Below are positions 1-40,936 of a DNA stretch of 40,936 bases, in pieces (position 1 is the first letter of the stretch; each line of letters starts with the position of its first letter). The stretch is from positions 1 through 40,936 of IMG/VR virus record IMGVR_UViG_3300002042_000002. One strand, written 5' to 3'. Source of the DNA: a virus. The notes under the pieces were generated by a model, which saw nothing but the letters and a program-made list of their open reading frames with translations, was not told where the DNA came from and ran no database searches. The position numbers and the translations under genes were made by a program.

Positions 1-36
1 ACAGTTCAAGCCCTTCATACTAATATCGCCCATGTC
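1..36. repeat. Terminal direct repeat (assembly overlap or terminal redundancy), copy 1
   Basis: ACAGTTCAAGCCCTTCATACTAATATCGCCCATGTC is identical to 40901..40936. Confidence 0.95.
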
Positions 37-310: not shown

Positions 311-583
311 TTGTCCCAGACAAAAACGAAACGGTTATTAATCAAAGCAGTTAAGGCATGGTGTGAAGAGGATCCTCATAGATCCTATGTCTCCTATACT
401 AACGGCCGCTCTGGACATGATATCGTAAGGGTTACTGTCTGGGACATACCTCTCAAAGTGTCTGTAGATTGCACCCCTAAAGGCGGCCCAGAGAAGGCGG
501 TAAAGAAATGCCTATCAACACTAAACACAAAATCCCGACTTAAGATCCAAGCGATCATAGAGGGTAAAGGAAAGATCTATTAA
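311..583 (+). CDS. Hypothetical protein (90 aa)
   Basis: ORF with a TTG start 8 nt after the upstream stop. It is on the same strand and packed like its neighbours. I recognise no motif. Confidence 0.55.
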   Translation: MSQTKTKRLLIKAVKAWCEEDPHRSYVSYTNGRSGHDIVRVTVWDIPLKVSVDCTPKGGPEKAVKKCLSTLNTKSRLKIQAIIEGKGKIY

Positions 584-723
584 TGTCAGATATCCCTCTC
601 GATAATAAGGCAGATCCTCAGCTCGAGACTAAGCCGAGCCCATGTAAAGGCTATACGCCAGACTATCAGGCTATGGGAGATTGTGCTCACTGTGGCCGCA
701 TACGAGAAGATCACTATGACTAG
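583..723 (+). CDS. Small hypothetical protein (46 aa) with C..CxxC
   Basis: ATG overlaps the upstream stop (TAATG). Translation is MSDIPLDNKADPQLETKPSPCKGYTPDYQAMGDCAHCGRIREDHYD. It is below the ORF-track size cutoff. Confidence 0.4.
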   Translation: MSDIPLDNKADPQLETKPSPCKGYTPDYQAMGDCAHCGRIREDHYD

Positions 724-925
724 ATGCGAGGTTATATGCTGTCCTCATAAAACAGAGAAGCCATACGTCTTCTGGTTTTGTAAGGATCATTGGCCGCTAG
801 TCCCCCGCTTACTTAAGAAGAAGATCCGCAAATCAGAGAGAGCTAAGAGACACGCCTTATCTCAGAAGCTTTGGGTAAAAGCTCAGCGTCACGTTATCCA
901 CGTCGTCGCCGGGATCCAGCCATGA
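716..925 (+). CDS. Hypothetical Cys-rich, basic small protein (69 aa)
   Basis: This is the internal ATG of track ORF 683..925 (MTRCEVICCPHK...). It has a basic KKKIRKSERAKRH segment. Its stop overlaps the next start (ATGA). Confidence 0.55.
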   Translation: MTRCEVICCPHKTEKPYVFWFCKDHWPLVPRLLKKKIRKSERAKRHALSQKLWVKAQRHVIHVVAGIQP

Positions 926-1278
926 CAGCTACAGTCACATATAAAAATCACGACGGCTCAGTCATAGCCTCCTATACCTATGAGCCTTCGCCCGGTATCT
1001 CGTGTAGCTGTAAAGAGCGAAAGCAACCGCTAACAGTTCCGGAAGGGTCTAATCAACGTCCTCGACAATGGGCTAAGCTATACACTGTCTGGGCTGGGAC
1101 TGGAGCCCTAAGAGGTAGAGAGACTTCGCGAACATATTCTTACATTGCATGTCGAGTATGCGGATCACACTGGAAGACATATAGCGACGCTATTATATCC
1201 GCTTGCCCTACTACCGAAGAGCTAGGCTATCCATGGCCCGGATCACATCTTCCCTTCGTCCCTCCTATAGAGGACTAG
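922..1278 (+). CDS. Hypothetical protein (118 aa) with Cys pairs
   Basis: ATG at 922 lies inside track ORF 871..1278 and overlaps the upstream gene by ATGA. The protein contains SCSC and CRVCGSHW motifs. Confidence 0.6.
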   Translation: MTATVTYKNHDGSVIASYTYEPSPGISCSCKERKQPLTVPEGSNQRPRQWAKLYTVWAGTGALRGRETSRTYSYIACRVCGSHWKTYSDAIISACPTTEELGYPWPGSHLPFVPPIED

Positions 1279-8345: not shown

Positions 8346-8354
8346 GAGCCGGAC

Positions 8355-8519
8355 ATGAAAGTTAAATCTCTAAAAAAGCATCGTAATGCCCATGGCGATA
8401 AATTCGAAAAACCTAAGGGCGTAGAGTACGATCACCCCAGCCCGGAAGCTGATATTAAAGCGGGCTTCGTTAAAGAAGTCACTTCGGCCGAAGGCAAGGG
8501 CAAAGCTCCTCAAAAATAG
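8355..8519 (+). CDS. Small lysine-rich protein (54 aa), paralogue of 7175..7372
   Basis: AGGAG lies 6 nt upstream of the ATG. Translation is MKVKSLKKHRNAHGDKFEKPKGVEYDHPSPEADIKAGFVKEVTSAEGKGKAPQK. It is not in the ORF track (under 60 aa). The antisense track ORF 8370..8717 is discounted. Confidence 0.55.
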   Translation: MKVKSLKKHRNAHGDKFEKPKGVEYDHPSPEADIKAGFVKEVTSAEGKGKAPQK

Positions 8520-8523
8520 CGCC

Positions 8524-8970
8524 GTGTTTAAAACGGAGTTAAAAGGCGGGAAGGAGATGGAAGATCTCCTGTTCTCACTCAAAGGCGCAACGGCCAAGGC
8601 CTTAACGCGCCGCTCCATGATTAAGAGCCTCGAGCCTGTCCGCGTCTTTGCTGAGTTTAAAGCACCGGAACGGATCGGGGTTCTTCGTTCAAATATAAAA
8701 ATATCTTCCAAGGCCAAGCCTCGGGCGAGAAAAAGATCCGACGTCGAAGTCTATGTAGGGCCGGATAGATCTGTAAGACATGCAATCCCGCAAGAGTTCG
8801 GAACTATCAATCACAGCCCCTCGCCTTATATGCGCCCGGCATGGGACGCTAAGAAGTTCGAAGTTTTAGTTAAATTTGAAGGTGAAATGTGGGATCAACT
8901 CTACACAGCTATAGAGAGACAAGAGCGCAAGATCGCGCGTGAAGCTGAGAAATTAAAGAGGACTTCGTAA
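8524..8970 (+). CDS. HK97 gp10-family tail-attachment/neck protein
   Basis: 148 aa. The QEFGT....PSPYMRPAWD motif and an N-terminal L..G..ME..L region are characteristic of the HK97 gp10 family. The start is GTG. Confidence 0.7.
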   Translation: MFKTELKGGKEMEDLLFSLKGATAKALTRRSMIKSLEPVRVFAEFKAPERIGVLRSNIKISSKAKPRARKRSDVEVYVGPDRSVRHAIPQEFGTINHSPSPYMRPAWDAKKFEVLVKFEGEMWDQLYTAIERQERKIAREAEKLKRTS

Positions 8971-27607: not shown

Positions 27608-27627
27608 AATGTTTCACGTGAAACATT
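27608..27627. terminator. 20-bp perfect palindrome between convergent operons (candidate bidirectional terminator or binding site)
   Basis: AATGTTTCAC|GTGAAACATT read directly. It lies between the o-spanin stop (27593) and the stop of the leftward gene (27627-27629). Confidence 0.4.
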
Positions 27628-28040
27628 TATGATATTCTGAAACAGTACATGTCCTCAGCTTCGGACATTGCCTTAAATATCGCTCTCTTAATCTCTTCCC
27701 GGACGCTCTTCGTCTTTATAAGCCATACGACATACGAATATTTATAGGGATCGTTACAGAAGACGTCGTCCTTATACTCCTCGAGCGTAAGGCTCTTCTT
27801 CTCGAGATTGTTATAGCTCCAGTGCATGTCCTTTACGATCTGCTCTGGAGTGTATCGGCTAACTGGGCCGTGATCTGCCTTCGCTTCGCATGACAACAGA
27901 GTGAAGAGTAGCAGGCATACGAAGCCGATAGAGAAATGAACGATAATGCTTTCTCTGGATCCTCGCTCTTTAGATCTTAGCCAAGCGTATAGCGCGGCCG
28001 ATAAAACTAGAGCTCCTATGAAGAATAAAATCTGAGCCAT
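27627..28040 (-). CDS. Membrane protein (two TM segments plus a soluble domain), last gene of the leftward operon
   Basis: 137 aa. Hydrophobic segments are ILFFIGALVLSAALYAWL and IIVHFSIGFVCLLLFTLLS. Confidence 0.65.
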   Translation of the reverse strand: MAQILFFIGALVLSAALYAWLRSKERGSRESIIVHFSIGFVCLLLFTLLSCEAKADHGPVSRYTPEQIVKDMHWSYNNLEKKSLTLEEYKDDVFCNDPYKYSYVVWLIKTKSVREEIKRAIFKAMSEAEDMYCFRIS

Positions 28041-28333
28041 TATGAGCCCTCCTTACTTTTAAACATGTCCGCCGTATTAGGGCATCTTTCGTCCTGCTCT
28101 AGATATCCCGCTTCTCCAGCGGAGCTAACGTAAGCAGAACACGTAGCGTTGCCAAATTTATTAATATGCCACTCTTCCGGCTGTTCGTCGCCTTCGCAAA
28201 CAGGCTCTCTAAAGTCCTCTATAATCCAGCATCCTTCGACGTCGTCTTTATCGCACTTACTGCATAGAGCTTTCATAAATGCGACGAGCTCGTCTCCGTC
28301 TTTAGGAGTGTAGCTATCGCCGGGCTTTCTCAT
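28040..28333 (-). CDS. Hypothetical Cys-rich acidic protein (97 aa)
   Basis: The internal ATG at 28333 forms an ATGA overlap with the upstream stop. The protein contains CSKCDKDD...C...C. Confidence 0.6.
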   Translation of the reverse strand: MRKPGDSYTPKDGDELVAFMKALCSKCDKDDVEGCWIIEDFREPVCEGDEQPEEWHINKFGNATCSAYVSSAGEAGYLEQDERCPNTADMFKSKEGS

Positions 28334-28980
28334 ATCAAAACTTCCTGAGGGCTCTTCTGAGACTTGGAATATTTCACCATCCACGGCTTAGGCTCCGGAA
28401 GAGCCTCTGAGCTCTCCTCCCATTTGAAATACGAGAGCTTCCCTGTTGTCTTACCCTTCGGCCGATATGGAAGAGGATCTCTGAGGACAAGGCCTCTCGG
28501 CCCCATAAACCAAGGGCTAGCATGATCGTTAACGATCCGGGTAACTGTAACGCCGCCGATTATACAGCCTCGTAGAAGCTCGTCTGGAGCCGGACAATCA
28601 ATCCCGCAATGCTCTAGCATATAGAGCCGCGCGTTCTCGTAATCCTTCTGAGAGACGCCCTGAGCGGCATGTATGGCTATCCTCTTAGGCTCCATTTCGC
28701 CCTTAGTGATCGCGTAAGAGGATCTGTTCTCGATATCCTTCCCGGCATAGATGATCGCCCATGCCCACGGCTGGCGGACAGACAGCGCTATAGAGGGCGG
28801 ATCGTAAGACGCAATCTTAATGTCCCGTATGTCCTTCTCTTCCAGCTCGTAGCGCTCCTGAGCTCGCTCCTTAGCCTGCTTTGAGCTTATGGCGTGGATC
28901 TGTAGGGAAAGCGCTTCAAACTCCGCTACAGCCTCCAGAGACAGCCCTATGTCCCATAATATCTCTTGCGGGTATATCAT
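28330..28980 (-). CDS. ASCH (PUA-like) domain protein with a ~65-aa N-terminal extension
   Basis: SVRQPWAWAIIYAGKDIENRS ... RIAIHAA is the typical ASCH-domain signature seen in phage proteins. Confidence 0.6.
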   Translation of the reverse strand: MIYPQEILWDIGLSLEAVAEFEALSLQIHAISSKQAKERAQERYELEEKDIRDIKIASYDPPSIALSVRQPWAWAIIYAGKDIENRSSYAITKGEMEPKRIAIHAAQGVSQKDYENARLYMLEHCGIDCPAPDELLRGCIIGGVTVTRIVNDHASPWFMGPRGLVLRDPLPYRPKGKTTGKLSYFKWEESSEALPEPKPWMVKYSKSQKSPQEVLI

Positions 28981-29480
28981 GCCTTACCCTCCGCTATCGC
29001 CATGCAAGCAAGGATAACGCCGTCCTTCTGTTGCCGCTGGGCTTCCATGCCTCGGAACATGCTATCAGCGCGGGACTTCTCTTGTTCATATTTGTTGCGA
29101 TAGAGGTCTCGTTTAGTACGTGCTTCTCCAAGATCGTCTAGATACCCGAGAGACTGATCTACTATCTTATTAACAGTGTCTCTCGCTACGCCGAGCTCTT
29201 CGTTACGGCGGATTAAGTCTCCCTGAAGATCTAGGACTTGCTCCTGTAGATCTGCGATCATTTCTGCGTCGTCCTTCCGGAGGCCTCTAGTCCGCTTCAG
29301 GACATGCCCGGCGCTATTGAGAACCTTCCGGACGGCCGCGTTATCGACTTCTAGATATCGAATATAGGACATAACCTCAGTAAGTGTCGTAAACGATATA
29401 GCAGGAGCCGCTCCGCTATCGAGAGAGATATCCTTCGCAGTTTGAAGAATGAGGGCTAAGTGTTTAAATTCAGGTTTCAT
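28977..29480 (-). CDS. Hypothetical coiled-coil protein (167 aa)
   Basis: The ORF overlaps the downstream gene by ATGA. It looks helical and charged. Confidence 0.65.
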   Translation of the reverse strand: MKPEFKHLALILQTAKDISLDSGAAPAISFTTLTEVMSYIRYLEVDNAAVRKVLNSAGHVLKRTRGLRKDDAEMIADLQEQVLDLQGDLIRRNEELGVARDTVNKIVDQSLGYLDDLGEARTKRDLYRNKYEQEKSRADSMFRGMEAQRQQKDGVILACMAIAEGKA

Positions 29481-29491
29481 GTGTCTTTCCT

Positions 29492-29593
29492 TTAACTTAT
29501 GAAAATGTAGATAATAGCTCCCCAGAGCAATAGAGCGAAGGGAAGCCAGATAACGAGAGCTCTCTTTAAGCCGTCGCTGTTTTTATGTTTCAT
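29492..29593 (-). CDS. 33-aa single-TM peptide
   Basis: A strong AAAGGAGG RBS lies 7 nt upstream of the ATG. Translation is MKHKNSDGLKRALVIWLPFALLLWGAIIYIFIS. It is not in the ORF track. Confidence 0.5.
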   Translation of the reverse strand: MKHKNSDGLKRALVIWLPFALLLWGAIIYIFIS

Positions 29594-29604
29594 ATAAACC
29601 TCCT

Positions 29605-29817
29605 TTAGTGTTTCCCGGCTTTGATTTGCTTCATTACTCGACGGTATATTTTAGCTCTCTCTCGCCGCCGTATTTCCTTCCATAGAAACTCTATAACACG
29701 CTCCGCCGCCTCGCCCCTTGGAATGTAAGCCGGATCTTCTGCCTCCGCGCATTGCTCAGCGTAATATCGCAGACCGTCGATACCTTCCTGAAGATCGTCT
29801 TTAGTGCATTTTTTCAT
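29605..29817 (-). CDS. Hypothetical protein (70 aa)
   Basis: The ORF is packed in the operon and its start overlaps the upstream stop. Confidence 0.6.
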   Translation of the reverse strand: MKKCTKDDLQEGIDGLRYYAEQCAEAEDPAYIPRGEAAERVIEFLWKEIRRRERAKIYRRVMKQIKAGKH

Positions 29818-30176
29818 TAGCTTACGTCCTCGTCGTCTTCGGCGGCCGTATTGAATGCCTTATTCCTAAAGCTCATTTTGTATCGCTCGCGCATAAAGCG
29901 GAGAGCGTGTTTCCAGTTTTTATATCCACCTTTAGGGGCGGAGCATGGCTCGGCGAATGTCCGCGTCTCGCCGTCCATTTGATATGTCTCTCCATGCGTC
30001 GGATAGAAGCTCGGGTGATATAGGGTGAAGCCGGATGTAAAGATCGTTTTATCAATCTCGAGGCGGCCGGGGCCGAGGTCACTCGCTACGACAGCGATAC
30101 GAGCTTTAGTACGCTCCGCGCCTTCTGCGAATTTCTTGTACTCCTGTAGATCCTTAGGGACTGGGCTGTCTGACAT
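29817..30176 (-). CDS. Hypothetical protein (119 aa)
   Basis: The ORF is packed in the operon. I recognise no motif. Confidence 0.6.
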   Translation of the reverse strand: MSDSPVPKDLQEYKKFAEGAERTKARIAVVASDLGPGRLEIDKTIFTSGFTLYHPSFYPTHGETYQMDGETRTFAEPCSAPKGGYKNWKHALRFMRERYKMSFRNKAFNTAAEDDEDVS

Positions 30177-30772
30177 TATCCTCTATCCTTCTTCTGGAAG
30201 CCTCTACTCTGGATCTTCCTCCCTTTAGGCCAATTAGAGCGGCCTTTGTTTCCCCAGCCTTGGCCGCTGGAGAGTTTTTTCTTCCCGTATGACTTTGGGA
30301 GGGGCTTTCCGTCTAGGATCCCCTGAGCACGTCTTAGACGAGCTACCTTGCCCTCTCTGGGCGTCTCGAGCGCGTCTGCTACTGCCTTATTACAAGCGTA
30401 ATGCCATGGGCCGCAGTTCTTCCGGGTATGGCCGCCGCTATTAGCGAAGTTAATCATATGGCCTAGAACACAGCTCATAGGATCTTGTCCGCTCTTAGTG
30501 ACGTCCACTCGCTTAAAGCAATGCGGACATGTCCAGTTATGCTCCTCGTAAACCTCGATAGGGTCGAAGTCCTCTATCTCGATAAGCGTATGAAGGAAGC
30601 GCGGATCCGAGATCTCGTCGTTAAGCGCTATAAGATCTTCATTCCTGCGCCTCGCCCGGCCCATATGAGCGCGGCCGTTTTTTCGAAGCCGGGCAATAGT
30701 TCCCGGCTTCAATACTTCTATGTCTTCTCGAGTGAGAGGAATTGACGGATCTAAATGGAGCGCAAGAGCCAT
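30176..30772 (-). CDS. HNH-type nuclease with a basic C-terminal tail
   Basis: CPHCFKRVD...GHMINFANSGGHTRKNCGPWHYACN fits the C..C / H / N / H..CN pattern of HNH nucleases. Confidence 0.55.
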   Translation of the reverse strand: MALALHLDPSIPLTREDIEVLKPGTIARLRKNGRAHMGRARRRNEDLIALNDEISDPRFLHTLIEIEDFDPIEVYEEHNWTCPHCFKRVDVTKSGQDPMSCVLGHMINFANSGGHTRKNCGPWHYACNKAVADALETPREGKVARLRRAQGILDGKPLPKSYGKKKLSSGQGWGNKGRSNWPKGRKIQSRGFQKKDRG

Positions 30773-30773
30773 G

Positions 30774-30860
30774 CTATATACTCAGCATCAACAGGAAGCC
30801 TACGATCAAAGCCCCCAGAGCGTAACAGAAACGCTCTTTCCATGTGCGAGGGCGGATCAC
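30774..30860 (-). CDS. Possible 28-aa TM micropeptide
   Basis: A GTG start overlaps the recT stop (GTGA). Translation is (M)IRPRTWKERFCYALGALIVGFLLMLSI. The call is speculative. Confidence 0.2.
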   Translation of the reverse strand: MIRPRTWKERFCYALGALIVGFLLMLSI

Positions 30861-32212
30861 TCTCCGGCCTCTTTAAGCGCTTCTATAGTTGTCTCAGTCG
30901 TCGTAATGACGTCGGCCTTCTGAGCTTCGTCCAGAGCGACAAACCACTCTAGATCTTGTTCTATCGGCCAAGCCTCCGAGATCATTTCGTAAGTAGTTTC
31001 TTTATCGTCGCAGTATGATAGCCAGTCCCGAGCCTCTTCGGGAAGCTCGACAGACGAGGGCTTGGGGGATCCCTCGTCTGTCTCAGCGGCCGGGGCGCTG
31101 TGGCCGCTGGGATCTTCTGTCGAATTGTCTTCCTTTTTCGACGTTGCAAACTTCTCTATCATTGCAAGGCTCAAATAGCAAAGCTCTCCAGTATCGTTAA
31201 GAGCCGGGCGATCATATTTAGCGTCCGGTTTAGAAGGGTCGAAGTCCTGCTTAATTCCCCGGAAGGTTCTATATGTAACGCCTTTGAAATAAACCACTTC
31301 CGGCTCTTCTCGCTCGTCGCTCTCGACAGTGCCGTACTCTTCCCGGCCGTAGCCGAAGAACTCACAGAACGCCTCTAGGTTCTCTTTGAAGGCGTCCGGA
31401 CGATCAATAAGCAGAAGCTTAGACGGCCGCTCAGTCTCCTCTCCGCTGTCCTCAGGATGATCCTCGAGTATTACCGCGTCTTCGACGTCTTCGTCCTCGA
31501 GGCTCTCAGGGATCGTCTCAGGCTCCTCTACGGTGTCTTCCGGAATGTTGCCTTTTAGCTTCTGGGCTAGACGAGAGGGCTTGTCCGCGTCTTCCTCGGC
31601 CGTCTGGATCGTAACGACGTGATCTTCCATTTCCTCGACAACCTGAAGCCCGTACATTTCGTCGGAGCAAGCGTCGCGGACAGCCCAGCTTATAGCGCGT
31701 CTCCAGATCATGCGTTCCGGATATTTCCACCATGGGCTATCGTTCTTAGTTTCGTAATGCTCGCGCTTCTGTCTATTCCATCGTTTAACGATAGCCTCAG
31801 TCTCCCAGAGCCCGGCTCTCTTTGCCATGGCTACAGAGAAGCTTCTCTCGATAACCGTCCCAGTATCTTCTCGAGTGATCTTACAGGTGACTTTGTAATC
31901 TTCGTCCTCGACGGATCCTGTAATCGTTTCCTCGAGCTTATGCCCGGCTCTATGAAGTATCGCTGTAAGGCCGTCGGCATAAACGGAGGGCTTGTCATTT
32001 ATGACTGTGATATTCGCTAGAGCTTGTGTCTCACTCCAGCCCATGTCCCGGCCCATAAGGATTATATACATTAGCGCTTTTGCGTTCTTTACGCTCTTCG
32101 GGATCATTCCGGACTGGAATAGCTTCTGAGACAGCTCCCATATGTCCGCTTGCTCGTCGCTCGTCGGCGTTGTTGTTTTGCGTACCGCTACGGCTTTCTG
32201 TTGTTGTGACAT
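30857..32212 (-). CDS. recT: RecT-family single-strand annealing protein with a ~250-aa acidic C-terminal extension
   Basis: The N-terminal ~200 aa (SGMIPKSVKNAKALMYIILMGRDMGWSETQALANITVINDKPSVYADGL ... WWKYPERMIWRRAISWAVRD) look like RecT. An exonuclease partner lies upstream. Confidence 0.7.
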   Translation of the reverse strand: MSQQQKAVAVRKTTTPTSDEQADIWELSQKLFQSGMIPKSVKNAKALMYIILMGRDMGWSETQALANITVINDKPSVYADGLTAILHRAGHKLEETITGSVEDEDYKVTCKITREDTGTVIERSFSVAMAKRAGLWETEAIVKRWNRQKREHYETKNDSPWWKYPERMIWRRAISWAVRDACSDEMYGLQVVEEMEDHVVTIQTAEEDADKPSRLAQKLKGNIPEDTVEEPETIPESLEDEDVEDAVILEDHPEDSGEETERPSKLLLIDRPDAFKENLEAFCEFFGYGREEYGTVESDEREEPEVVYFKGVTYRTFRGIKQDFDPSKPDAKYDRPALNDTGELCYLSLAMIEKFATSKKEDNSTEDPSGHSAPAAETDEGSPKPSSVELPEEARDWLSYCDDKETTYEMISEAWPIEQDLEWFVALDEAQKADVITTTETTIEALKEAGE

Positions 32213-32213
32213 G

Positions 32214-32447
32214 TTATATATCCCCGGCGAGCTGGAGGCTGTGGATAGCGTCTTCTACGCTACCCTTAGCTTCTGTTAATTGATCTGCGGCCTGCTCCGC
32301 TTGTTGGCCGCGCTCAGATCCTTGTAGGTTTTCTGGCATATTGTCGAAATACTCTTGCTCTTCGTCTGCTATAGTTTCTAAATCCGAGTTAATTTCTTCC
32401 AGTGTTTCTACGGCCTTCGCTATGGCCTCTCTTCTATCTTTATTCAT
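32214..32447 (-). CDS. Small, very acidic helical protein (77 aa)
   Basis: Contains DEEQEYFDNMPENLQGSERGQQAEQAADQL. It is wedged between the exonuclease gene and recT, overlapping the exonuclease gene's stop at its start and ending 1 nt before the recT start. Confidence 0.65.
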   Translation of the reverse strand: MNKDRREAIAKAVETLEEINSDLETIADEEQEYFDNMPENLQGSERGQQAEQAADQLTEAKGSVEDAIHSLQLAGDI

Positions 32448-33457
32448 GGTTTTACGATCCTCATTTTACCGTCTAGATTTGGGAGTATTCCCTTTTTAAT
32501 TAGTAGCTCGAGCTTCTCCTCTGTCCGGTTAGAATATCCGGGAGGATTGTAAGTTACGATCTCGTCCGTATAGCCGTCCCATTGTCCGCCTATGACTTGG
32601 CGGCCTTTTGCGAATTGCTGAGCTCCATATAGAGCCTTGGCCGCTAGCTTGTGCATGAAGTCATTTTTCAGCTCGATAACGGTTATCCCGTATGGAGCCT
32701 CTGTCTTCTGGAAGACGAGAGCGAAGTCGAGATCTCCGAAGTTCAATCCTAAGAGACGACATGCCACTAGAGCGCAACAGGCGAGCTTTACGTCATAGCC
32801 CATATTCTCGATCTGCTTTTTACAGGCGTCCGGGGAATTGTTGAAACATGTCTTATAGTCGCTGAAGATGTTATCGGCGATCCGGACACGCTTCGTCTTC
32901 TTGTCCTCGTAAACCGGGAGCATATCTGGACGGGTCTTAATGACGACGCCGCTCTCGTCCTCTATGAAGAGAGAGATCTCCGGCTCGCCAACCTCGAATA
33001 GTGTAGAGGCTAGCGTATGATCCTTAATACGTCTCGCCATGGCGTCCACTCGAGCGACGTCTTTTAGATTGATAGTGGTTAAGCCCTTTTGCGCCTCTTG
33101 CACCCAGCGCCAGTGCTTAGCGTCTTCAGATCGCATTGTTTTCCACTTCGGAGGCCATGGGATATAATCGTCTATCCACTTCTGCGGCTCTAAGATTTTC
33201 GTATGAGCGGCCGTACCAAATCTAAAGCATTCTTTGTGGAGGGCGATCTGTCGCTTATTGTTTTGATTGTCCTCGTTATAGTAGCTCTCTACCCAGTATT
33301 CCTCTCCATTCTCGGACAGCTTATAACAGTCGCCGGAAGAGACGCTCTCTTTCCAAGCGCAATCGCTATGATATGTCGAGAGTGGCATACGGTAGAGGCC
33401 GGGCTTCATAACCTTAGCGCCGGGCTCTAGGTCGATTATAGATAGAGATTTAGTCAT
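32444..33457 (-). CDS. PD-(D/E)XK exonuclease (RecE/exonuclease VIII-like), partner of RecT
   Basis: 337 aa. The motifs GTAAHTKILEP, KTRPDMLPV and IFSDYKTC fit the D...(D/E)xK nuclease pattern. Synteny with recT supports the call. Confidence 0.6.
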   Translation of the reverse strand: MTKSLSIIDLEPGAKVMKPGLYRMPLSTYHSDCAWKESVSSGDCYKLSENGEEYWVESYYNEDNQNNKRQIALHKECFRFGTAAHTKILEPQKWIDDYIPWPPKWKTMRSEDAKHWRWVQEAQKGLTTINLKDVARVDAMARRIKDHTLASTLFEVGEPEISLFIEDESGVVIKTRPDMLPVYEDKKTKRVRIADNIFSDYKTCFNNSPDACKKQIENMGYDVKLACCALVACRLLGLNFGDLDFALVFQKTEAPYGITVIELKNDFMHKLAAKALYGAQQFAKGRQVIGGQWDGYTDEIVTYNPPGYSNRTEEKLELLIKKGILPNLDGKMRIVKP

Positions 33458-33475
33458 GTATCTTTCTTTCTTAGG

Positions 33476-33838
33476 TTAATAGTCAGGATTGTTTTTGAGG
33501 CGTTGCTCGGCTCTCCAGCGAGCGCTATCGCTTTCTTCGTCGTCGCTCCCGTCCGAAAAGTCAGAGCGCGGCTCGCCGTCGTAAGGCTCCTTATGGATCA
33601 TGTTGTGACCCTCTACCCATAAAAGATAATCATATCCGGCCATATCAATCTCGAAGAGTTTATAGGCGTCTGGTATAGCCAGTCCTATATATGGGGCGTG
33701 ATCTTTGTTTTTTTGGGTTAAGTGTGCGAGCATCCACTGGAATGCGTCTCTATCTCTCTCTTCTTTCGAAAAGAAGACGTTAGTCCTAGTCCCGCAATCG
33801 TCGTCTGTAGTAAACGTAAAAATAGTTTCATTGGTCAT
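33476..33838 (-). CDS. Hypothetical acidic protein, first gene of the leftward early operon (120 aa)
   Basis: I used the internal ATG at 33838 (MTNETIFTFTTDDD...). The longer track start (33982) would run through the control region and overlap the RHH gene. Confidence 0.6.
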   Translation of the reverse strand: MTNETIFTFTTDDDCGTRTNVFFSKEERDRDAFQWMLAHLTQKNKDHAPYIGLAIPDAYKLFEIDMAGYDYLLWVEGHNMIHKEPYDGEPRSDFSDGSDDEESDSARWRAEQRLKNNPDY

Positions 33839-33886
33839 ATTGTTTTCCTGAGTAGTCTGGTAGCTCGCTCTCCTTACTTCGATAAT

Positions 33887-33937
33887 GGGATATCTGTCAA
33901 CATAAAAAAAAAGATTGCGTATATCCCAAATATATCC
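33887..33937. promoter_or_regulatory. Candidate operator/promoter region: GGGATAT / ATATCCC inverted repeat, a third ATATCC copy, and a leftward TTGACA hexamer
   Basis: GGGATAT lies at 33887-33893, ATATCCC at 33921-33927 and ATATCC at 33932-33937. TGTCAA at 33895-33900 is TTGACA on the minus strand. The region sits between the divergent early operons. Confidence 0.4.
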
Positions 33938-33971
33938 TAAAGAGCTTTCGTCAATCAGGAGATAATGAACA

Positions 33972-34124
33972 ATGGCTACCAAAAAAGATCACACTATGAA
34001 GTCCCTTAACCTCCCGGACGCGCTTGTAGACCTTATCCAGCTAATCGCTGATAAAGAGCGCCGTTCCTTTACGGCTCAAGCTGTATTGTTTCTAGAGCAG
34101 GGCGCGGAGCATTACCGCCAATAA
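33972..34124 (+). CDS. Ribbon-helix-helix (Arc/CopG-like) transcriptional regulator (50 aa)
   Basis: MATKKDHTMKSLNLPDALVDLIQLIADKERRSFTAQAVLFLEQGAEHYRQ has the beta-strand plus two-helix RHH pattern (LNLP..L...L...A..E.RS....). It is not in the ORF track. Confidence 0.65.
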   Translation: MATKKDHTMKSLNLPDALVDLIQLIADKERRSFTAQAVLFLEQGAEHYRQ

Positions 34125-34174: not shown

Positions 34175-34717
34175 ATGTCCTTAAATCAGGTGAAGACTAT
34201 GGAAGACACTGACGTAGACAAAATAGTCCGGGAGAATTTCCCAGACTTAACAGAGCACTCTCGCTGGCTAGAAGGCCTCCGCGAAATTGCAAAAAACATT
34301 AAGAGCGAGCAGGCGATTTATCGCAACAAGCTTAAGCCTCACTTAGACGAGCGCCGGGATCTCCTTAAAGACGCCCGTCTCGCCGGAGTAGATACGAAAG
34401 CTTTAAAGCAAATGGCTCTAGTCGTCGATTTTCTCGATAAGAACGTAATTAACGTACATGACAAAATCGGTGAAGACGCAGGCGACACAGCTCAGGCAAT
34501 GTTCGATCAATTTAGCCTCCCCTTCGCGGACTTCCGTCCGGGTAAGGATCTCATAGCAGAAGCCAAGCGTAAACACGCTGAGGCCAAAGCTAAGAAGGCC
34601 GAAGAGATCAAGGCGGCCAAAGCGAAAGCCAAAGCCGACGGCGATAAGCCGAAGGGTGGTCTTAAAGCGGCGGCCGCAAAAACAGCAACAGGTCAAAAGA
34701 AGGCCAAGGCTAAATAA
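34175..34717 (+). CDS. GapR/DUF2312-like DNA-binding protein with a Lys/Ala-rich histone-H1-like tail
   Basis: DARLAGVDTKALKQMALVVDFLD resembles the GapR core EAKGNGFDVKVLKKVVRIRKQD. The tail is AEAKAKKAEEIKAAKAKAKADGDKPKGG...KKAKAK. An alternative start, ATG 34199, has an AGGTGA RBS. Confidence 0.4.
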   Translation: MSLNQVKTMEDTDVDKIVRENFPDLTEHSRWLEGLREIAKNIKSEQAIYRNKLKPHLDERRDLLKDARLAGVDTKALKQMALVVDFLDKNVINVHDKIGEDAGDTAQAMFDQFSLPFADFRPGKDLIAEAKRKHAEAKAKKAEEIKAAKAKAKADGDKPKGGLKAAAAKTATGQKKAKAK

Positions 34718-37268: not shown

Positions 37269-38183
37269 GTGAGTTATATCGTTACAGCACATATTCGCTC
37301 TCGTGTTGTCGGCCATGCCGTCAAAAAAGCTATTCTCCTCGTAATGGCCGACGCCGCTAATCACGACGGCTCGGATATATGGCTCTCAAAACCTACAATT
37401 TCGGCCGAGACTGAGTACGGGATCTCTACAATTAAAAAACATATGAGGGAGCTTGTAGCTGTCGGAGAGAAGTATGAGGACTTTACCCCGCTCATAATTG
37501 AGACAGGAAAACGCCGGGTAACTAACGGCTTTGTAAAGATCTATAAGATCGACTTAGAGGCTATATCTGCGCTCCCATTATCGAAAGTTATAGACCAGAC
37601 AGGGGGGTTATCTCTCGCCCCCGTCAATAATGGAGAAAATAGTGACGTAACCCCGACAGGGGCAGGAGACGCCCCCGACACAGGTCAGGACATGCCCCCT
37701 AACAATCCTGAACAGTCCGACAACAGTCCATCTACGGGAGATATCTTTGAGAAGCTTTGGAAGAAGATAATCGAGATCACTCCTGTAGACATTAGAACTC
37801 GTCATAAGAAGAAGCCCGCTCTAGCCAAATTTACTAAGATCGTTACCCGGAAGGAAAATTCTATTTCAGCGTCCAGAGTAGCTAACGCTGTATTGTGGTT
37901 TTATGCTTCTCCAGAGCAGACGCGCGACGGCGGCCGCTACATGCCGGGCCTCGTGCCGCTGTTGAACTCAGAAAACTTTACTCACTTTCTCGATAAAGGC
38001 GTATATGATCGCGCTGAGAGTAAAGAAGCTAAATCGCTCGAGGCTTGGCAGATCCGCGCTGATTATGTTAATCAGAACGCCGGAGAGTGGCCTCCTTCAG
38101 CTCCTAGTCCTCGTACATGCCCTAAGGACGTTAGAAAGCTCTTCGATAAACAGCACTGGGAAGCTTTAGGGTGGACAGAATGA
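37269..38183 (+). CDS. Replication initiator/organiser-like protein (N-terminal wHTH)
   Basis: GTG start. AILLVMADAANHDGSDIWLSKPTISAETEYGISTIKKHMRELV is a typical phage replication-protein HTH. A central IFEKLWKKI...PALAKFTK motif is seen in replisome organisers. Confidence 0.5.
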   Translation: MSYIVTAHIRSRVVGHAVKKAILLVMADAANHDGSDIWLSKPTISAETEYGISTIKKHMRELVAVGEKYEDFTPLIIETGKRRVTNGFVKIYKIDLEAISALPLSKVIDQTGGLSLAPVNNGENSDVTPTGAGDAPDTGQDMPPNNPEQSDNSPSTGDIFEKLWKKIIEITPVDIRTRHKKKPALAKFTKIVTRKENSISASRVANAVLWFYASPEQTRDGGRYMPGLVPLLNSENFTHFLDKGVYDRAESKEAKSLEAWQIRADYVNQNAGEWPPSAPSPRTCPKDVRKLFDKQHWEALGWTE

Positions 38184-38509
38184 AAAAGCGGTTAATCCAT
38201 TCTTACGGATCTCGATACTTTGCTAAGCCGGGAGGCACGATAGAGCCATATTACGAAGAGGATGTTATGGAGCTCGAGGCTTTAGTCCGGAAAGCGGCCT
38301 CAGGACGTGCCATAGACCGCGAATTAACACGCCTCATAGAGCAGGGCGTCGATTACAGCTTAGAGCTCACAAATGAGATAAAGTCCCTCAGGCGACGTCT
38401 GAGAGCGTCTGAGGAACAGTGTAAACAGCTCGTAACGGCTGTAGAGGCTTTAAAAGCGTCAAATCCGCGTCCCGTATTTGGGTACTTTAGGAAATTCTTC
38501 AGAAAATGA
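38171..38509 (+). CDS. Hypothetical coiled-coil protein (112 aa)
   Basis: The ORF overlaps both neighbours. It has a helical segment EIKSLRRRLRASEEQCKQLVTAVEALK. Confidence 0.6.
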   Translation: MDRMKKRLIHSYGSRYFAKPGGTIEPYYEEDVMELEALVRKAASGRAIDRELTRLIEQGVDYSLELTNEIKSLRRRLRASEEQCKQLVTAVEALKASNPRPVFGYFRKFFRK

Positions 38510-38997
38510 GATCTCTTAGAAGCATATTATCTCCGAAACTCCCCGGCTCTGCTTTACGCGTTTCTGGCTATGCTACCTTCTTCTGGAAGGAGGACGAGAA
38601 CGCAGACGTCCTAGCGCCGGGCGCATTTAGCGAAGATCTCGCTCTCGGGCCGTTCTATCGGCCGATGTTTTACAATCACGTTTACGAAGAGCTAGCTATA
38701 GGCGCGTGGGATCATATTCAGGCCTCAGAATACGGGATCTACGTCTCTGGAGTGATTAATCCGAGATTTAGTCTCGGCCGAGGCATAACTGAAGCCGTAA
38801 TTAAGGGATATATGAGATCTTTGTCTATCGGCTATCATAAATACCGCTTATTTGAGACATTAGGCGGCGCTGAGCTTTGCGACAGTGCTGTATTGCAAGA
38901 GATCTCTATTTGCGACGGCGGAGCCATGGAAGGGGCCGTCATTTCGGATTATCGCTGGATAAGGAACCCGTTTACAGGAAGGGCAGGTGAAAAATGA
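38506..38997 (+). CDS. Second HK97-type prohead protease (Peptidase S78)-like protein, core domain only (163 aa)
   Basis: It aligns by eye with 5086..5781: VSGYATFF..D.NADVLAPGAF / GLASVFG.VD.GGDMILPGAY, PMFYNH / PFLWRH, GIYVSGVINP / GLKVKGRIVP, SLSIGY / GLSIGY and LQEIS / LFEIS. Confidence 0.6.
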   Translation: MRSLRSILSPKLPGSALRVSGYATFFWKEDENADVLAPGAFSEDLALGPFYRPMFYNHVYEELAIGAWDHIQASEYGIYVSGVINPRFSLGRGITEAVIKGYMRSLSIGYHKYRLFETLGGAELCDSAVLQEISICDGGAMEGAVISDYRWIRNPFTGRAGEK

Positions 38998-39359
38998 CCG
39001 CAATTAAATTTATAGAAGAAAGACGGCCGCTAGCTAAGGCGTTTAAGGCCTCTCGAGAGAAGCTGGACTATAAAAGGGCCACTTTTGGCCTAATGCTCGG
39101 TTATAACGGCAATAATTGTAAAAAGCGCGTTCAAGAGTTCGAAAGTGGACATAGGCAGATCCCCCAGCATGTTTTACGCAAAGTTCACGACTGGATTACG
39201 CTCGGGCTTCCAGAAGACGCTCCAGAGCCGGATCTGTTGATCGCAAAAGCGACTTATTTCGAGAAAATGAGGCAGGGAAAGCCAAAATTTAACAATCGGG
39301 AGAATGTCGGCTCCCTACAGCCCGGCACTATCAATCTAAACGCAAAGGAAGACGCATAA
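38994..39359 (+). CDS. XRE/Cro-like HTH protein (121 aa)
   Basis: FKASREKLDYKRATFGLMLGY....KKRVQEFESGHRQIPQHVLRKV follows the HTH_3 pattern, ending in E.G.r.iP. Confidence 0.5.
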   Translation: MTAIKFIEERRPLAKAFKASREKLDYKRATFGLMLGYNGNNCKKRVQEFESGHRQIPQHVLRKVHDWITLGLPEDAPEPDLLIAKATYFEKMRQGKPKFNNRENVGSLQPGTINLNAKEDA

Positions 39360-39592
39360 TGAAGTCTCTAAATGTAAAAATAGGATCTCTCGGACAGATC
39401 TTGCGAAAATTAACTGAAATGGAAGATAATTCGCCCGGCGCGGCGGAGCTCGAAAATATGTCCGATTATCTCACAGATCCGGAGAGTAAGATCCTCACAG
39501 TCGGCATAGACGGAGATACGGCCGTAATCTCATTACATGAAGATCTTATAGAGGTTCTCTCTGAGAACGGCCTAGAAGAGGTTTTTAAGTAA
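39359..39592 (+). CDS. Hypothetical acidic protein (77 aa)
   Basis: The ORF has TAATG overlaps on both sides. Confidence 0.6.
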   Translation: MKSLNVKIGSLGQILRKLTEMEDNSPGAAELENMSDYLTDPESKILTVGIDGDTAVISLHEDLIEVLSENGLEEVFK

Positions 39593-40062
39593 TGGGAAAG
39601 GCAGTTAAATTCGAAGGGTGTAACTTCAAGTTCGCGGCTCCTGAGGCCGCTAAGAACGTCGTAGATCTAGAGTGCTTTACAAATGGCTCTCACAATGTCC
39701 TCGCTGTAGAGCTCACAAGCGAAGAACACGCCGAGTATATGAAAACAGGCCGGATATTTGTTTCTGTTCTTAGTGGACAGCATTTCTTCCCTATATTCGT
39801 CGGAACAGAGACTAGCACTCGAGAGCTTGTGAAACAGGACGGCGGCGTCGTATGGCCTAGCGCCGAAGATCTCCTCGAGCAAAAGTTGATCCGGGAAACA
39901 CATAAGCTCTTAGGAGGCGACGCTAAACAGAGACAGCTCTGTAGGACTAATCCGGAGCATTTCAATAAGGCTTGTGCTGATATTAAGCGATTATTGTTCA
40001 ATTCTGTAAGCGTAAAAGAGATCCGTCCTATAGTGTCTCAATATCTCGCGCATATCGACTAA
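39592..40062 (+). CDS. Hypothetical protein (156 aa)
   Basis: The ORF is packed in the operon. I cannot name a family with confidence. Confidence 0.65.
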   Translation: MGKAVKFEGCNFKFAAPEAAKNVVDLECFTNGSHNVLAVELTSEEHAEYMKTGRIFVSVLSGQHFFPIFVGTETSTRELVKQDGGVVWPSAEDLLEQKLIRETHKLLGGDAKQRQLCRTNPEHFNKACADIKRLLFNSVSVKEIRPIVSQYLAHID

Positions 40063-40067
40063 TCGAC

Positions 40068-40409
40068 ATGGCGAAGCGTGTAGCTCGAGAGGTCTATATC
40101 AAGTGGTACGGCCTTGGCGTCTGGAAGAAACTTCGCCTATTCCAGCTCCGTAGAGAGCCTCTCTGTCATATGTGCAAAGCTGAAGGGAAGACAGTCCCCG
40201 CTACGGTAGCAAACCACACTAAGGCACATAGAGGCGACTGGGATCTCTTCGTAGATCCTAAGAACCTCGATAGCCTCTGCGAGCATCACCATAACAGCGA
40301 TCAGCAGTCTTTCGAGAAGGGAGGAACGCCTAAGCTTAAGTTCGACGACGACGGCTGGCCTCTGGAAGATCCTAACGAATTGCTTGCAAAGCGACAGGCT
40401 AAGAGCTAA
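40068..40409 (+). CDS. Terminase-associated HNH endonuclease (HK97 gp74-like)
   Basis: LCHMCKAEGKTVPATVANHTKAHRGDWDLFVDPKNLDSLCEHHHN is the classic phage HNH. It is the last gene before the packaging region. Confidence 0.85.
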   Translation: MAKRVAREVYIKWYGLGVWKKLRLFQLRREPLCHMCKAEGKTVPATVANHTKAHRGDWDLFVDPKNLDSLCEHHHNSDQQSFEKGGTPKLKFDDDGWPLEDPNELLAKRQAKS

Positions 40410-40624
40410 GCGCTCGAGAGCGGAGGGCGCACCGTATGGGAGACGCGGCCCATATGCGAGACAGAAGAGCATAGGCAAGGGCCGAGATTGATCGCTCGAG
40501 TACCTACTTAACTCTCCCTCCGCTCCATTTGCTTATATGACTATTAAATGATATCTCTGTCCTCTCAGGTGCGAGCCTGAGCGCCATAAGGCGAAACAAC
40601 AACTAGAACGACACGGAGTTATAC

Positions 40625-40936
40625 ATGTCACATCTGTTTACAATTAAGGCTATCTCAAAGACAGGCGGCCTATCCCTTTTAACCACACTTAATTACGCCT
40701 TCTTTCCCACGGTGCTACACGGCCCCGGCGGTGGATATCGCGTAGAGTTTCTCGACAGCAACGCTACAGACGACGTTAGGCAGGTTCTTATCGTCGGAGA
40801 TTATACAGGCCTTAAAGAGGGCGAGCATGGCAAAGACGAGGACTTCTACGCCAACGTCCGCCACTGTGAGAAAGTTTATATCGAGAATGAGAAAGGCGCT
40901 ACAGTTCAAGCCCTTCATACTAATATCGCCCATGTC
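40625..40936 (+). CDS. Hypothetical protein, 5' part of the junction-spanning ORF (continues at nt 37 of the window)
   Basis: ATG at 40625 is followed by 104 open codons to the window end, in phase with 1..303. Confidence 0.7.
   Translation, partial: MSHLFTIKAISKTGGLSLLTTLNYAFFPTVLHGPGGGYRVEFLDSNATDDVRQVLIVGDYTGLKEGEHGKDEDFYANVRHCEKVYIENEKGATVQALHTNIAHV
40901..40936. repeat. Terminal direct repeat, copy 2
   Basis: Identical to 1..36. Confidence 0.95.

Follow-up and report, generated by a model that had tools for sequence, protein, structure and literature searches.

The window analyzed here, IMG/VR virus record IMGVR_UViG_3300002042_000002 in its full length of 40,936 nucleotides (nt), is a complete phage genome of ~40.9 kb that was assembled as a circle. 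In addition to the prohead protease of its head module, this genome encodes a second homolog of the HK97-family (S78) prohead proteases, a protein of 163 amino acids (aa) that we denote S78L (positions 38506..38997), among genes that extend from a replication initiator to an HNH endonuclease. The most conserved residues of the protease family are retained in S78L, a C-terminal extension is missing, and the gene is an insert that two sister phages lack. Collectively, these observations suggest that S78L is an accessory protease that was captured horizontally, is probably active, lacks targeting, and has a substrate other than the capsid, a tentative reading to which we assign a probability of roughly 0.45.

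Prohead proteases are regarded as strictly morphogenetic and as confined to the head module. A preliminary description of the window, drawn from its letters and open reading frames (ORFs), had proposed that a potentially active HK97-type protease outside of the head module performs a non-morphogenetic job. This core idea remains the best reading, with three amendments: S78L is optional, lineage-specific cargo; gene packing is the sole indication that it is expressed early; and the main rival explanation is a neutral remnant of recombination, not a local duplicate of the resident gene.

Homology and Divergence of S78L

Judged by its sequence, S78L is certainly a genuine homolog of the S78/HK97 family proteases, and it is atypical for curated profiles. 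The protein aligns with the resident protease at 33% identity over 95 aa (BLASTP, E = 4e-9) and with HK97 gp4 at 33.6% identity across residues 21-147 (tblastn, E = 1e-12). Screening of GenBank phages with tblastn matched 62 records, and all places listed in these are annotated or positioned as head maturation proteases. An exhaustive phmmer search of 1.84 billion representative proteins returned 699 matches at E <= 1e-3, none of which is more than 41% identical to S78L; all matches whose Pfam annotation was looked up carry PF04586. At the level of profiles, TIGR01543 (proheadase_HK97) matched S78L over profile positions 4-139 of 142 (E = 1.2e-14) with a score of 54.7 bits, which is under the curated cut-off of 59 and compares to 72-111 bits for six other S78 proteins. 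The head maturation protease family phrog_80 matched at E = 1.5e-5, and PF04586 gave no match even at E <= 1. The second protease homolog that had been recognized by eye is thus real by BLASTP, tblastn with gp4, TIGR01543, and phmmer; the S78 profile that detects it is TIGR01543 and not, as had been expected, PF04586.

S78L is the sole member of both its 50% and its 90% cluster. A word-indexed homolog search returned only S78L itself, no close relatives were found in viral contigs, and a sequence search of the PDB yielded a single spurious match (E = 0.36). The gene was also identified on one contig of 1.7 kb from the same Joint Genome Institute (JGI) sample; the two contigs differ by 2 nt, neither of which falls inside S78L.

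Two simple origins for S78L were rejected. The G+C content at third codon positions (GC3) and the codon usage of S78L are ordinary and not outliers, which rules out a recent foreign origin visible in composition and suggests that the acquisition is old or that the donor phage was compositionally similar. We also rule out that S78L arose from the resident protease by a recent duplication, be it tandem or segmental, because the 33% identity between the two proteins is no higher than that between S78L and unrelated S78 proteases; pairwise scores are 40 bits for the resident protease and 45-78 bits for unrelated S78 proteins. A decaying duplicate of the resident gene, which the preliminary description had considered as an alternative, is thereby set aside.

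Catalytic Residues and Predicted Fold

In an alignment that included HK97 gp4, residues H58 and S107 of S78L fall on H65 and S114 of gp4, which we take to be the catalytic pair of the HK97 protease; counting along gp4 confirms the H65/S114 numbering. The earlier observation that both the His and the Ser at catalytic positions are retained therefore stands. All positions that are at least 96% conserved among 149 homologs are kept in S78L (G21, D30, D34, G39, A40, H58, G66, G77, G82, S107, G109, E132, and S134), with a single conservative replacement (L78I), although S78L is only ~30% identical to these homologs overall. S78L deviates at six positions that are 80-87% conserved (E73A, D74S, G105S, R123E, V136C, and P139G). 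These patterns suggest that the core of an active enzyme is present in S78L and that its periphery is unusual.

An AlphaFold2 (AF2) model of S78L guided by an alignment of 30 homologs reached a predicted local distance difference test (pLDDT) score of 90.4 and a predicted template modeling (pTM) score of 0.84, values that, the model being built from an S78 alignment, are no independent proof of a folded, active enzyme; a model built from the single sequence had a pLDDT of 29. Foldseek comparisons of the guided model yielded prohead proteases with E-values down to 1.6e-14 and template modeling scores (TM-scores) of 0.7-0.8 when normalized to the query, and also herpesvirus assemblins (E ~1e-5) and T4 gp21 (5jbl, TM-score 0.6). 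S78L is therefore predicted by modeling to have the assemblin/prohead-protease fold.

Absence of the C-Terminal Extension

Relative to the resident protease and to gp4, S78L lacks ~60-70 C-terminal residues, as had been noted earlier for the resident copy. From Glu132 to the C-terminus S78L comprises 32 residues, compared to a median of 83 in the subgroup of homologs that share its His-to-Gly loop length. The C-terminal region of gp4 reportedly targets the enzyme into the prohead. The S78L frame is intact, with 163 codons that start at the native N-terminus of the domain and end ~10 residues past its last strand. S78 proteases of only 154-182 aa are, however, the usual form in gene transfer agent (GTA)-type and alphaproteobacterial head modules, and the missing tail alone is thus no proof of a new role.

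In the gp4-like subgroup, the loop that joins the catalytic His to the next invariant Gly is just as long as in S78L; proteins of this subgroup have a median length of 223 aa, and only 2 of its 28 other members are short, a hint that S78L was truncated. Overall identity is ~30% to all subgroups, such that S78L is equidistant to long and short forms. On balance, we lean towards a truncated long form, as opposed to one that is natively short.

Insertion of S78L Between Two Backbone Genes

Two sister phages were identified through their HNH genes, namely IMG/VR contigs 3300002061_000008 (L004) and 3300001202_000004 (L005). The three genomes are roughly equidistant from one another, with identities of ~78% for the large terminase (TerL), 65% for DnaB, and 72-74% for HNH. 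L004 and L005 share a backbone with the window that comprises the replication initiator, a gene for a 112-aa coiled-coil-like protein, a gene for a 121-aa helix-turn-helix (HTH)-like protein, orf77, orf156, and HNH. Within this backbone S78L lies between the coiled-coil and HTH-like genes of the window. In L004 these two genes (539..862 and 859..1212) are directly adjacent with an ATGA overlap, and in L005 (8037..8348 and 8350..8685) they are likewise directly adjacent; neither sister has S78L. Alignments with the sister homologs extend to the C-terminus of the coiled-coil protein and start at the first residues of the HTH-like protein, and the difference between the window and the sisters at this junction is thus exactly the S78L ORF.

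These observations show that S78L is an insert specific to one lineage, placed at an ATGA junction of a variable region, and that it is an optional accessory gene and not a core part of the phage. With a star-like tree, a single gain of S78L is slightly more parsimonious than two losses. Both edges of S78L read AAAATGA, and the uninterrupted junction of L004 reads ATAAAATGA; the edges are consistent with an insertion by short homology at the stop/start junction. The segment from the replication initiator to HNH (window 37269-40409, L004 1-2817, and L005 6899-10816) has different small ORFs at its junctions in each phage. Since each phage has its own small inserts there, the segment is a mosaic hot spot for cargo.

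The sister genomes also bear on how the neighborhood of S78L is to be interpreted. The ATGA overlaps that couple S78L to both of its neighbors are real, yet S78L is not a conserved part of the operon. Because the coiled-coil and HTH-like genes are adjacent in the sisters without S78L, its coupling to them is a consequence of the insertion site and not evidence of a functional trio. Acquisition of the coiled-coil gene together with S78L as a scaffold-protease pair is ruled out, since that gene is conserved through its C-terminus in the sisters that lack S78L. A leftover of a replaced head module is likewise ruled out, given that the insert lies between genes that are adjacent in the sisters and is far from the head genes. 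The resident protease of the window is 68% identical to that of L004, and the portal, protease, and capsid genes of the sisters are 63-70% identical to those of the window. A scan of metagenomes with orf156 as the query found nothing, and a genome scan with the replication initiator recovered only a distant locus in a Hyphomonas metagenome-assembled genome with no synteny. From this match and the match to a Paracoccus phage, the host is probably alphaproteobacterial.

Orphan S78 Homologs in Other Genomes

Short S78 proteins were looked up individually to determine their genomic setting. Five are canonical (P0002, P0054, P0159, P0160, and P0016), including the best non-self phmmer match to S78L (P0002, E = 1.4e-12); three are orphans (P0039, P0021, and P0046) on unrelated metagenomic contigs from phages or prophages; and three others (P0006, P0018, and P0045) are on contigs too short to place. 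P0039 is preceded by a 280-aa protein that is ParB-like by eye and by a Trans_reg_C protein, and is followed by a DUF87 ATPase and a DUF5131 protein. P0046 lies between an HTH_35 gene, Ner-like by position, and genes for ParB, a Mu-type transposase, and a TniB/MuB-like ATPase. In the orphan setting with a CI-like repressor and RecT, an exonuclease also occurs. Hidden Markov models (HMMs) for portal, capsid, and TerL that were built here had no match in the L018, L022/L023, or L024/L025 loci that encode the three orphans.

Each of the three orphans keeps the His, the Ser, and the Glu-x-Ser motif, and each passes the TIGR01543 cut-off. ATGA overlaps occur at both ends of P0039 and P0021, and P0046 has a GTGA start overlap. 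Identity to S78L is 31-36% for the orphans, whereas each of them is 43-53% identical to canonical GTA-type proteases; two of the three also resemble those proteases more than they do the other orphans. The matrix of pairwise scores rules out a dedicated orphan subfamily.

To place these genes in context, the 80 metagenomic loci most similar to P0039 were scored with the capsid and portal HMMs; 74 were informative and the other 6 are on contigs that are too short. A capsid or portal gene lies beside the protease in 74/74 informative loci. GenBank phages contained 811 S78 matches in 808 records, and at most 3 records can therefore have two. The expectation that homologs always lie beside capsid genes, which the preliminary description had connected to a decaying duplicate of a head module, accordingly describes these metagenomic loci and fails for the three orphans in early-type operons. 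Orphan S78 genes are therefore rare, recurrent, and polyphyletic. No close relatives of P0021 were found in viral contigs, and for P0046 a single distant one (37% identity) was found. In the literature that was searched, no account of S78 orphans located in early operons was found.

The best matches to the orphans in cultured collections were two GenBank records labeled 'Bacteriophage sp.' (L028, MW462191.1 41685-54074, and L027, MW091529.1), which resemble RcGTA-type head-tail clusters. In MW462191, bacterial genes for a penicillin-binding protein and a LysE transporter flank the cluster, and this record is probably bacterial DNA with a gene transfer agent and not a phage genome.

Genome Organization and Flanking Genes

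An exact 36-nt direct repeat at the ends of the contig marks a circular assembly (Table 1). The head and tail genes are ordered as small terminase (1491), large terminase, portal (3855), S78 protease, major capsid protein (5784), tail genes, and endolysin (26043). A recombination module on the minus strand (27627..33982) contains RecT-like, exonuclease VIII-like, and HNH genes. The plus-strand block starts with an ORF at 34175, RusA, DnaB (35616), and the replication initiator, continues through the 112-aa gene, S78L, the 121-aa gene, a 77-aa ORF, and a 156-aa ORF to HNH, and crosses the circular junction back to terminase. Genes within 37269..40409 overlap or are a few bases apart at most.

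Table 1. Features of the window and orphan S78 genes on other contigs. Positions are those of the window unless a contig is named.
Feature	Location	Strand	Remarks
Resident canonical S78 prohead protease, 231 aa	5086..5781	+	Between portal and major capsid protein; PF04586 E = 1.8e-22
Replication initiator	37269..38183	+	HTH_36 and PHROG replication-initiation families; first gene of the tightly packed block 37269..40409
Helical, coiled-coil-like backbone gene, 112 aa	38171..38509	+	Conserved at full length, including the C-terminus, in both sister phages
S78L, orphan HK97-family (S78) prohead-protease homolog, 163 aa	38506..38997	+	Protease domain at ~residues 16-153
ATGA overlap, left edge of insert	38506..38509	+	Stop of coiled-coil gene and start of S78L; local sequence GAAAATGA
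His58 codon (CAC)	38677..38679	+	Aligned with gp4 His65; invariant in 149/149 homologs
Ser107 codon (TCT)	38824..38826	+	Aligned with gp4 Ser114, motif SLSIGY; invariant in 148/148 homologs
Glu132-Ile-Ser134 (E-I-S motif)	38899..38907	+	98% conserved in the family
ATGA overlap, right edge of insert	38994..38997	+	Stop of S78L and start of 121-aa gene; local sequence AAAAATGA
Backbone gene, possibly an XRE-like HTH regulator, 121 aa	38994..39359	+	Directly after the coiled-coil gene in sister phages
HNH endonuclease	40068..40409	+	Last gene of the block; followed, across the circular junction, by small terminase (1491)
Terminal repeat, 36 nt	40901..40936	.	Copy of window positions 1-36; circular assembly
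Orphan P0039, 163 aa	L018 6001-6492		Downstream of a CI-like S24 repressor, among small ORFs
Orphan P0021, 144 aa	L022/L023 6001-6435		After a CI-like repressor, LexA-type DNA-binding protein, DUF3799 protein, RecT, and DUF6197 protein
Orphan P0046, 157 aa	L024 4860-5333 (also L025)		Mu-like early operon

The coordinates and lengths reported earlier for S78L and its two neighbors, the ATGA overlaps at both of its ends, and the position of the resident protease in a portal-protease-capsid trio are all borne out, as is the location of S78L outside of that trio in a co-directional, tightly packed block. Its description as far from any capsid gene was overstated. On the circle, S78L lies outside of the head module, yet the distance downstream to HNH is only 1.07 kb, to the small terminase gene 3.4 kb, and to the resident protease 7.0 kb. 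Early timing of S78L expression is suggested by gene order only, and the block ends in a terminase-associated HNH gene. Because the contig is circular, the plus-strand 'early' block leads directly into the HNH and terminase genes.

The coiled-coil label given earlier to the 112-aa protein rests on weak Pfam matches (E about 0.004-0.05), and the XRE-like HTH label of the 121-aa protein on one PHROG match (phrog_14076, E = 1e-4); Pfam and NCBIfam had no match to the latter. Only three members of the HTH-like family were found among 5.8 billion proteins, and no close relatives of the 121-aa protein were found in viral contigs. The coiled-coil/HTH-like pair is kept and translationally coupled in all three sister phages, and it is located where lambdoid phages carry late regulators, which makes it a candidate late regulator; no antiterminator or late activator was recognized in the window. 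Consensus scans for a promoter or terminator flanking S78L were uninformative and revealed none that was convincing, S78L being translationally coupled instead.

The small ORFs of the replication-initiator-to-HNH segment are arranged differently in the three phages. The initiator and the coiled-coil gene are separated by a 93-aa ORF in L004 and, in L005, by an 81-aa ORF that is probably a winged helix by eye. Around orf156, L004 has ORFs of 68 and 69 aa before it and L005 has ORFs of 69 and 90 aa after it. A homolog of orf80 of the window (683-925) is found before HNH in L005 and after HNH in the window. HNH of L005 (9908-10816) is fused to a C-terminal extension of ~190 aa with a P-loop-like GPAASGKTT, and comprises 302 aa as compared to 113 aa in the window.

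A stretch of ~0.8 kb that is poor in ORFs (40410-40936 and 1-310) separates HNH from the next plus-strand ORF. A cos site or a late promoter may lie in this stretch, which contains a single ORF of at least 70 aa, on the minus strand (40715-40933). The recombination module also encodes a second HNH endonuclease (198 aa; 30176-30772, minus strand), next to an exonuclease VIII-like protein and a RecT-like protein that is long (451 aa). Among the ORFs scanned between 27627 and 34717 with PHROGs, Pfam, and NCBIfam, no integrase or recognizable CI/Cro-type repressor was identified, and the divergent ORFs at 33476-33982 (minus) and 34175-34717 (plus) had no family matches in these databases. A megablast comparison of the early region to GenBank phages returned no match.

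Possible Roles of S78L

In the reading that we prefer, the source of S78L would be the head-module protease gene of some unsampled phage, acquired horizontally as an accessory ('cargo') gene. Capture was probably by short-homology recombination at the AAAATGA stop/start junction, and would have placed S78L between two translationally coupled backbone genes of the variable replication-to-HNH segment. The product would be a free-standing serine-protease domain of the HK97 fold, with the His/Ser pair and Glu-x-Ser and without a C-terminal capsid-targeting or scaffold-like extension, and it would be expressed along with the genes from the replication initiator to HNH. It most likely stays out of proheads and would act on a non-capsid substrate in the cytoplasm, be it a host protein, a defence protein, or a protein of a competing element. 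The catalytic activity of S78L, its lack of encapsidation, a cytoplasmic non-morphogenetic target, and a benefit to the phage are all features that we infer. In the cyclic oligonucleotide-based antiphage signaling system (CBASS), the CD-NTases of this bacterial immunity are triggered by prohead-protease cleavage (PMC12991175), and prohead proteases determine CBASS activation and escape (bioRxiv 10.1101/2023.05.21.541620; PMC12991175). Head-type proteases can thus act on cytoplasmic targets, which makes activity outside of the capsid feasible and cuts both ways for an extra free protease.

Several points weigh against this reading. The six deviations at conserved positions, the absence of a PF04586 match, and the score under the TIGR01543 cut-off could all mean relaxed constraint, and both the divergence and the conserved residues of S78L could be a legacy of earlier service as a canonical head protease, in which case they would carry no information on selection where the gene now lies. 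The structural model derives from the S78 alignment itself. S78L is a singleton, and it is absent from two of the three phages in its group. Orphans are rare, both among the informative metagenomic loci (0/74) and among GenBank phages, and they form no clade with S78L, so no conserved 'early protease' family is evident. Lastly, an active S78L would risk triggering protease-sensing immunity (PMC12991175).

The strongest rival, and in our view a fairly unlikely one, is that S78L is a neutral hitch-hiker. The gene would then be a tail-less protease fragment of a foreign head module that arrived by illegitimate recombination at a gene junction, was kept because coupling of the coiled-coil and HTH-like genes was preserved, and is functionless and slowly decaying. 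This would account for the absence of S78L from both sisters, for the lack of close relatives anywhere, and for S78L being the most divergent S78 protein examined by TIGR01543 score and Pfam, with substitutions at six otherwise conserved positions. Rare and polyphyletic orphans are also what sporadic accidents would give, and a His-to-Gly loop of the length found in the long-form gp4 subgroup suggests that the tail was lost by truncation. An intact frame that spans the domain from its native N-terminus to just past its last strand is harder to reconcile with decay, as is the retention of every position conserved at 96% or more (one as L78I) at ~30% overall identity. The composition of S78L is fully ameliorated, and three independent orphans elsewhere likewise keep all catalytic residues. 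Furthermore, a capsid of limited size selects against 0.5 kb of junk.

An auxiliary morphogenetic role, in which S78L processes a virion protein other than the capsid protein or enters proheads by a route that does not depend on the tail, appears improbable. S78 proteases of 154-182 aa that have no long tail do serve canonical head modules, showing that the tail is not universally needed, and S78L is on the same strand as HNH (1 kb) and terminase (3.4 kb) downstream on the circle and may be expressed close to the late genes. Yet the sisters build heads without S78L from portal, protease, and capsid genes that are 63-70% identical to those of the window, S78L and the resident protease are only 33% identical, and HNH, the ~0.8-kb ORF-poor region, several small ORFs, and the terminase genes lie between S78L and the head genes.

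A non-catalytic use of the fold is likewise improbable: S78L would bind and not cut, titrating or heterodimerizing with the resident protease to delay maturation or mimicking a prohead protease towards host sensors, and its deviations at conserved non-catalytic positions (the ED motif at 73-74, R123, and P139) could reflect changed partners, and CBASS activation and escape are known to depend on prohead proteases, but the kept His, Ser, and Glu-x-Ser are unexpected in a pure binder, 33% identity to the resident protease would make specific hetero-oligomers unlikely, and S78L had no match in PADLOC or to an anti-defence family in a search that included no dedicated anti-defence library.

The reading of S78L as a captured accessory protease can be extended to the other orphans. 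Phages may repeatedly capture head-maturation proteases, strip or omit the tail, and place them in early/replication operons as free cytoplasmic proteases. These would cleave regulators, immune sensors of the host, or capsid precursors that belong to competing elements. S78L and the three orphans would then be four independent instances of a hitherto undescribed use of the HK97/assemblin protease fold outside of morphogenesis. This generalization is rather unlikely, and it gains interest from the report that CBASS enzymes sense prohead-protease cleavage.

Comparison with Known Protease Systems

S78L resembles HK97 gp4 (MEROPS S78; PF04586/TIGR01543) in its catalytic domain, in the aligned His and Ser, in a predicted fold that is assemblin-like, and in the His-to-Gly loop length and an MF(F/Y)NH...G.WD motif common to both. 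Unlike gp4, it is not located between portal and capsid genes, coexists with a resident S78 protease, lacks a C-terminal region of ~60-70 aa, and is below the TIGR01543 cut-off and missed by Pfam. The short GTA-type and alphaproteobacterial S78 proteases (~154-182 aa; the five canonical proteins named above) are of similar length to S78L and also consist of the domain only; however, they are encoded in the order terminase, portal, (small ORF), protease, capsid, and in most of them the His-to-Gly loop is one residue shorter than that of S78L. The three orphans (144-163 aa) are like S78L in keeping the catalytic residues and in being embedded in a co-directional, early-type operon away from portal and capsid genes. 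Orphan contigs carry CI-like S24 repressors, whereas no repressor or integrase was recognized in the window.

More distant parallels are found in other families. T4 gp21 and herpesvirus assemblin (S77 and S21) share the predicted fold of S78L by Foldseek at sequence identities of only 11-21% and, unlike S78L, are essential morphogenetic enzymes. The pairing of an ImmA/IrrE-type protease with an XRE repressor is a functional analogy only, in that S78L, too, is a protease gene in translational coupling with a gene for a putative XRE-like HTH protein. The fold of ImmA, a zinc metalloprotease (HEXXH), is a different one, whereas S78L is predicted to be a serine protease; moreover, the pairing of S78L with the HTH-like gene is not conserved in the sisters, arose by insertion into an existing coiled-coil/HTH pair, and involves a weak HTH assignment. 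S78L has the distribution of an accessory ('moron'-like or anti-defence-type) cargo gene, in that it is present in one lineage, absent at the same junction in close relatives, and located in a segment with other lineage-specific inserts. Unlike a classical moron, S78L lacks a convincing promoter and terminator of its own.

Implications

S78 domains with intact catalytic residues also occur as stand-alone genes in early/replication operons, as found in the window and in three unrelated contigs, and represent a known protease family in an undescribed genomic setting. Annotation pipelines call any TIGR01543 or PF04586 match a head gene; the orphans warn against inferring a head module from a protease match alone. 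If they are inactive remnants, the orphans document the scattering of head-module genes by recombination at the level of gene junctions. If they are active, they would constitute a new class of phage effector proteases with a bearing on the triggering of CBASS CD-NTases (PMC12991175), and an untargeted protease that is present before or alongside head assembly could pre-empt, subvert, or set off CBASS sensing.

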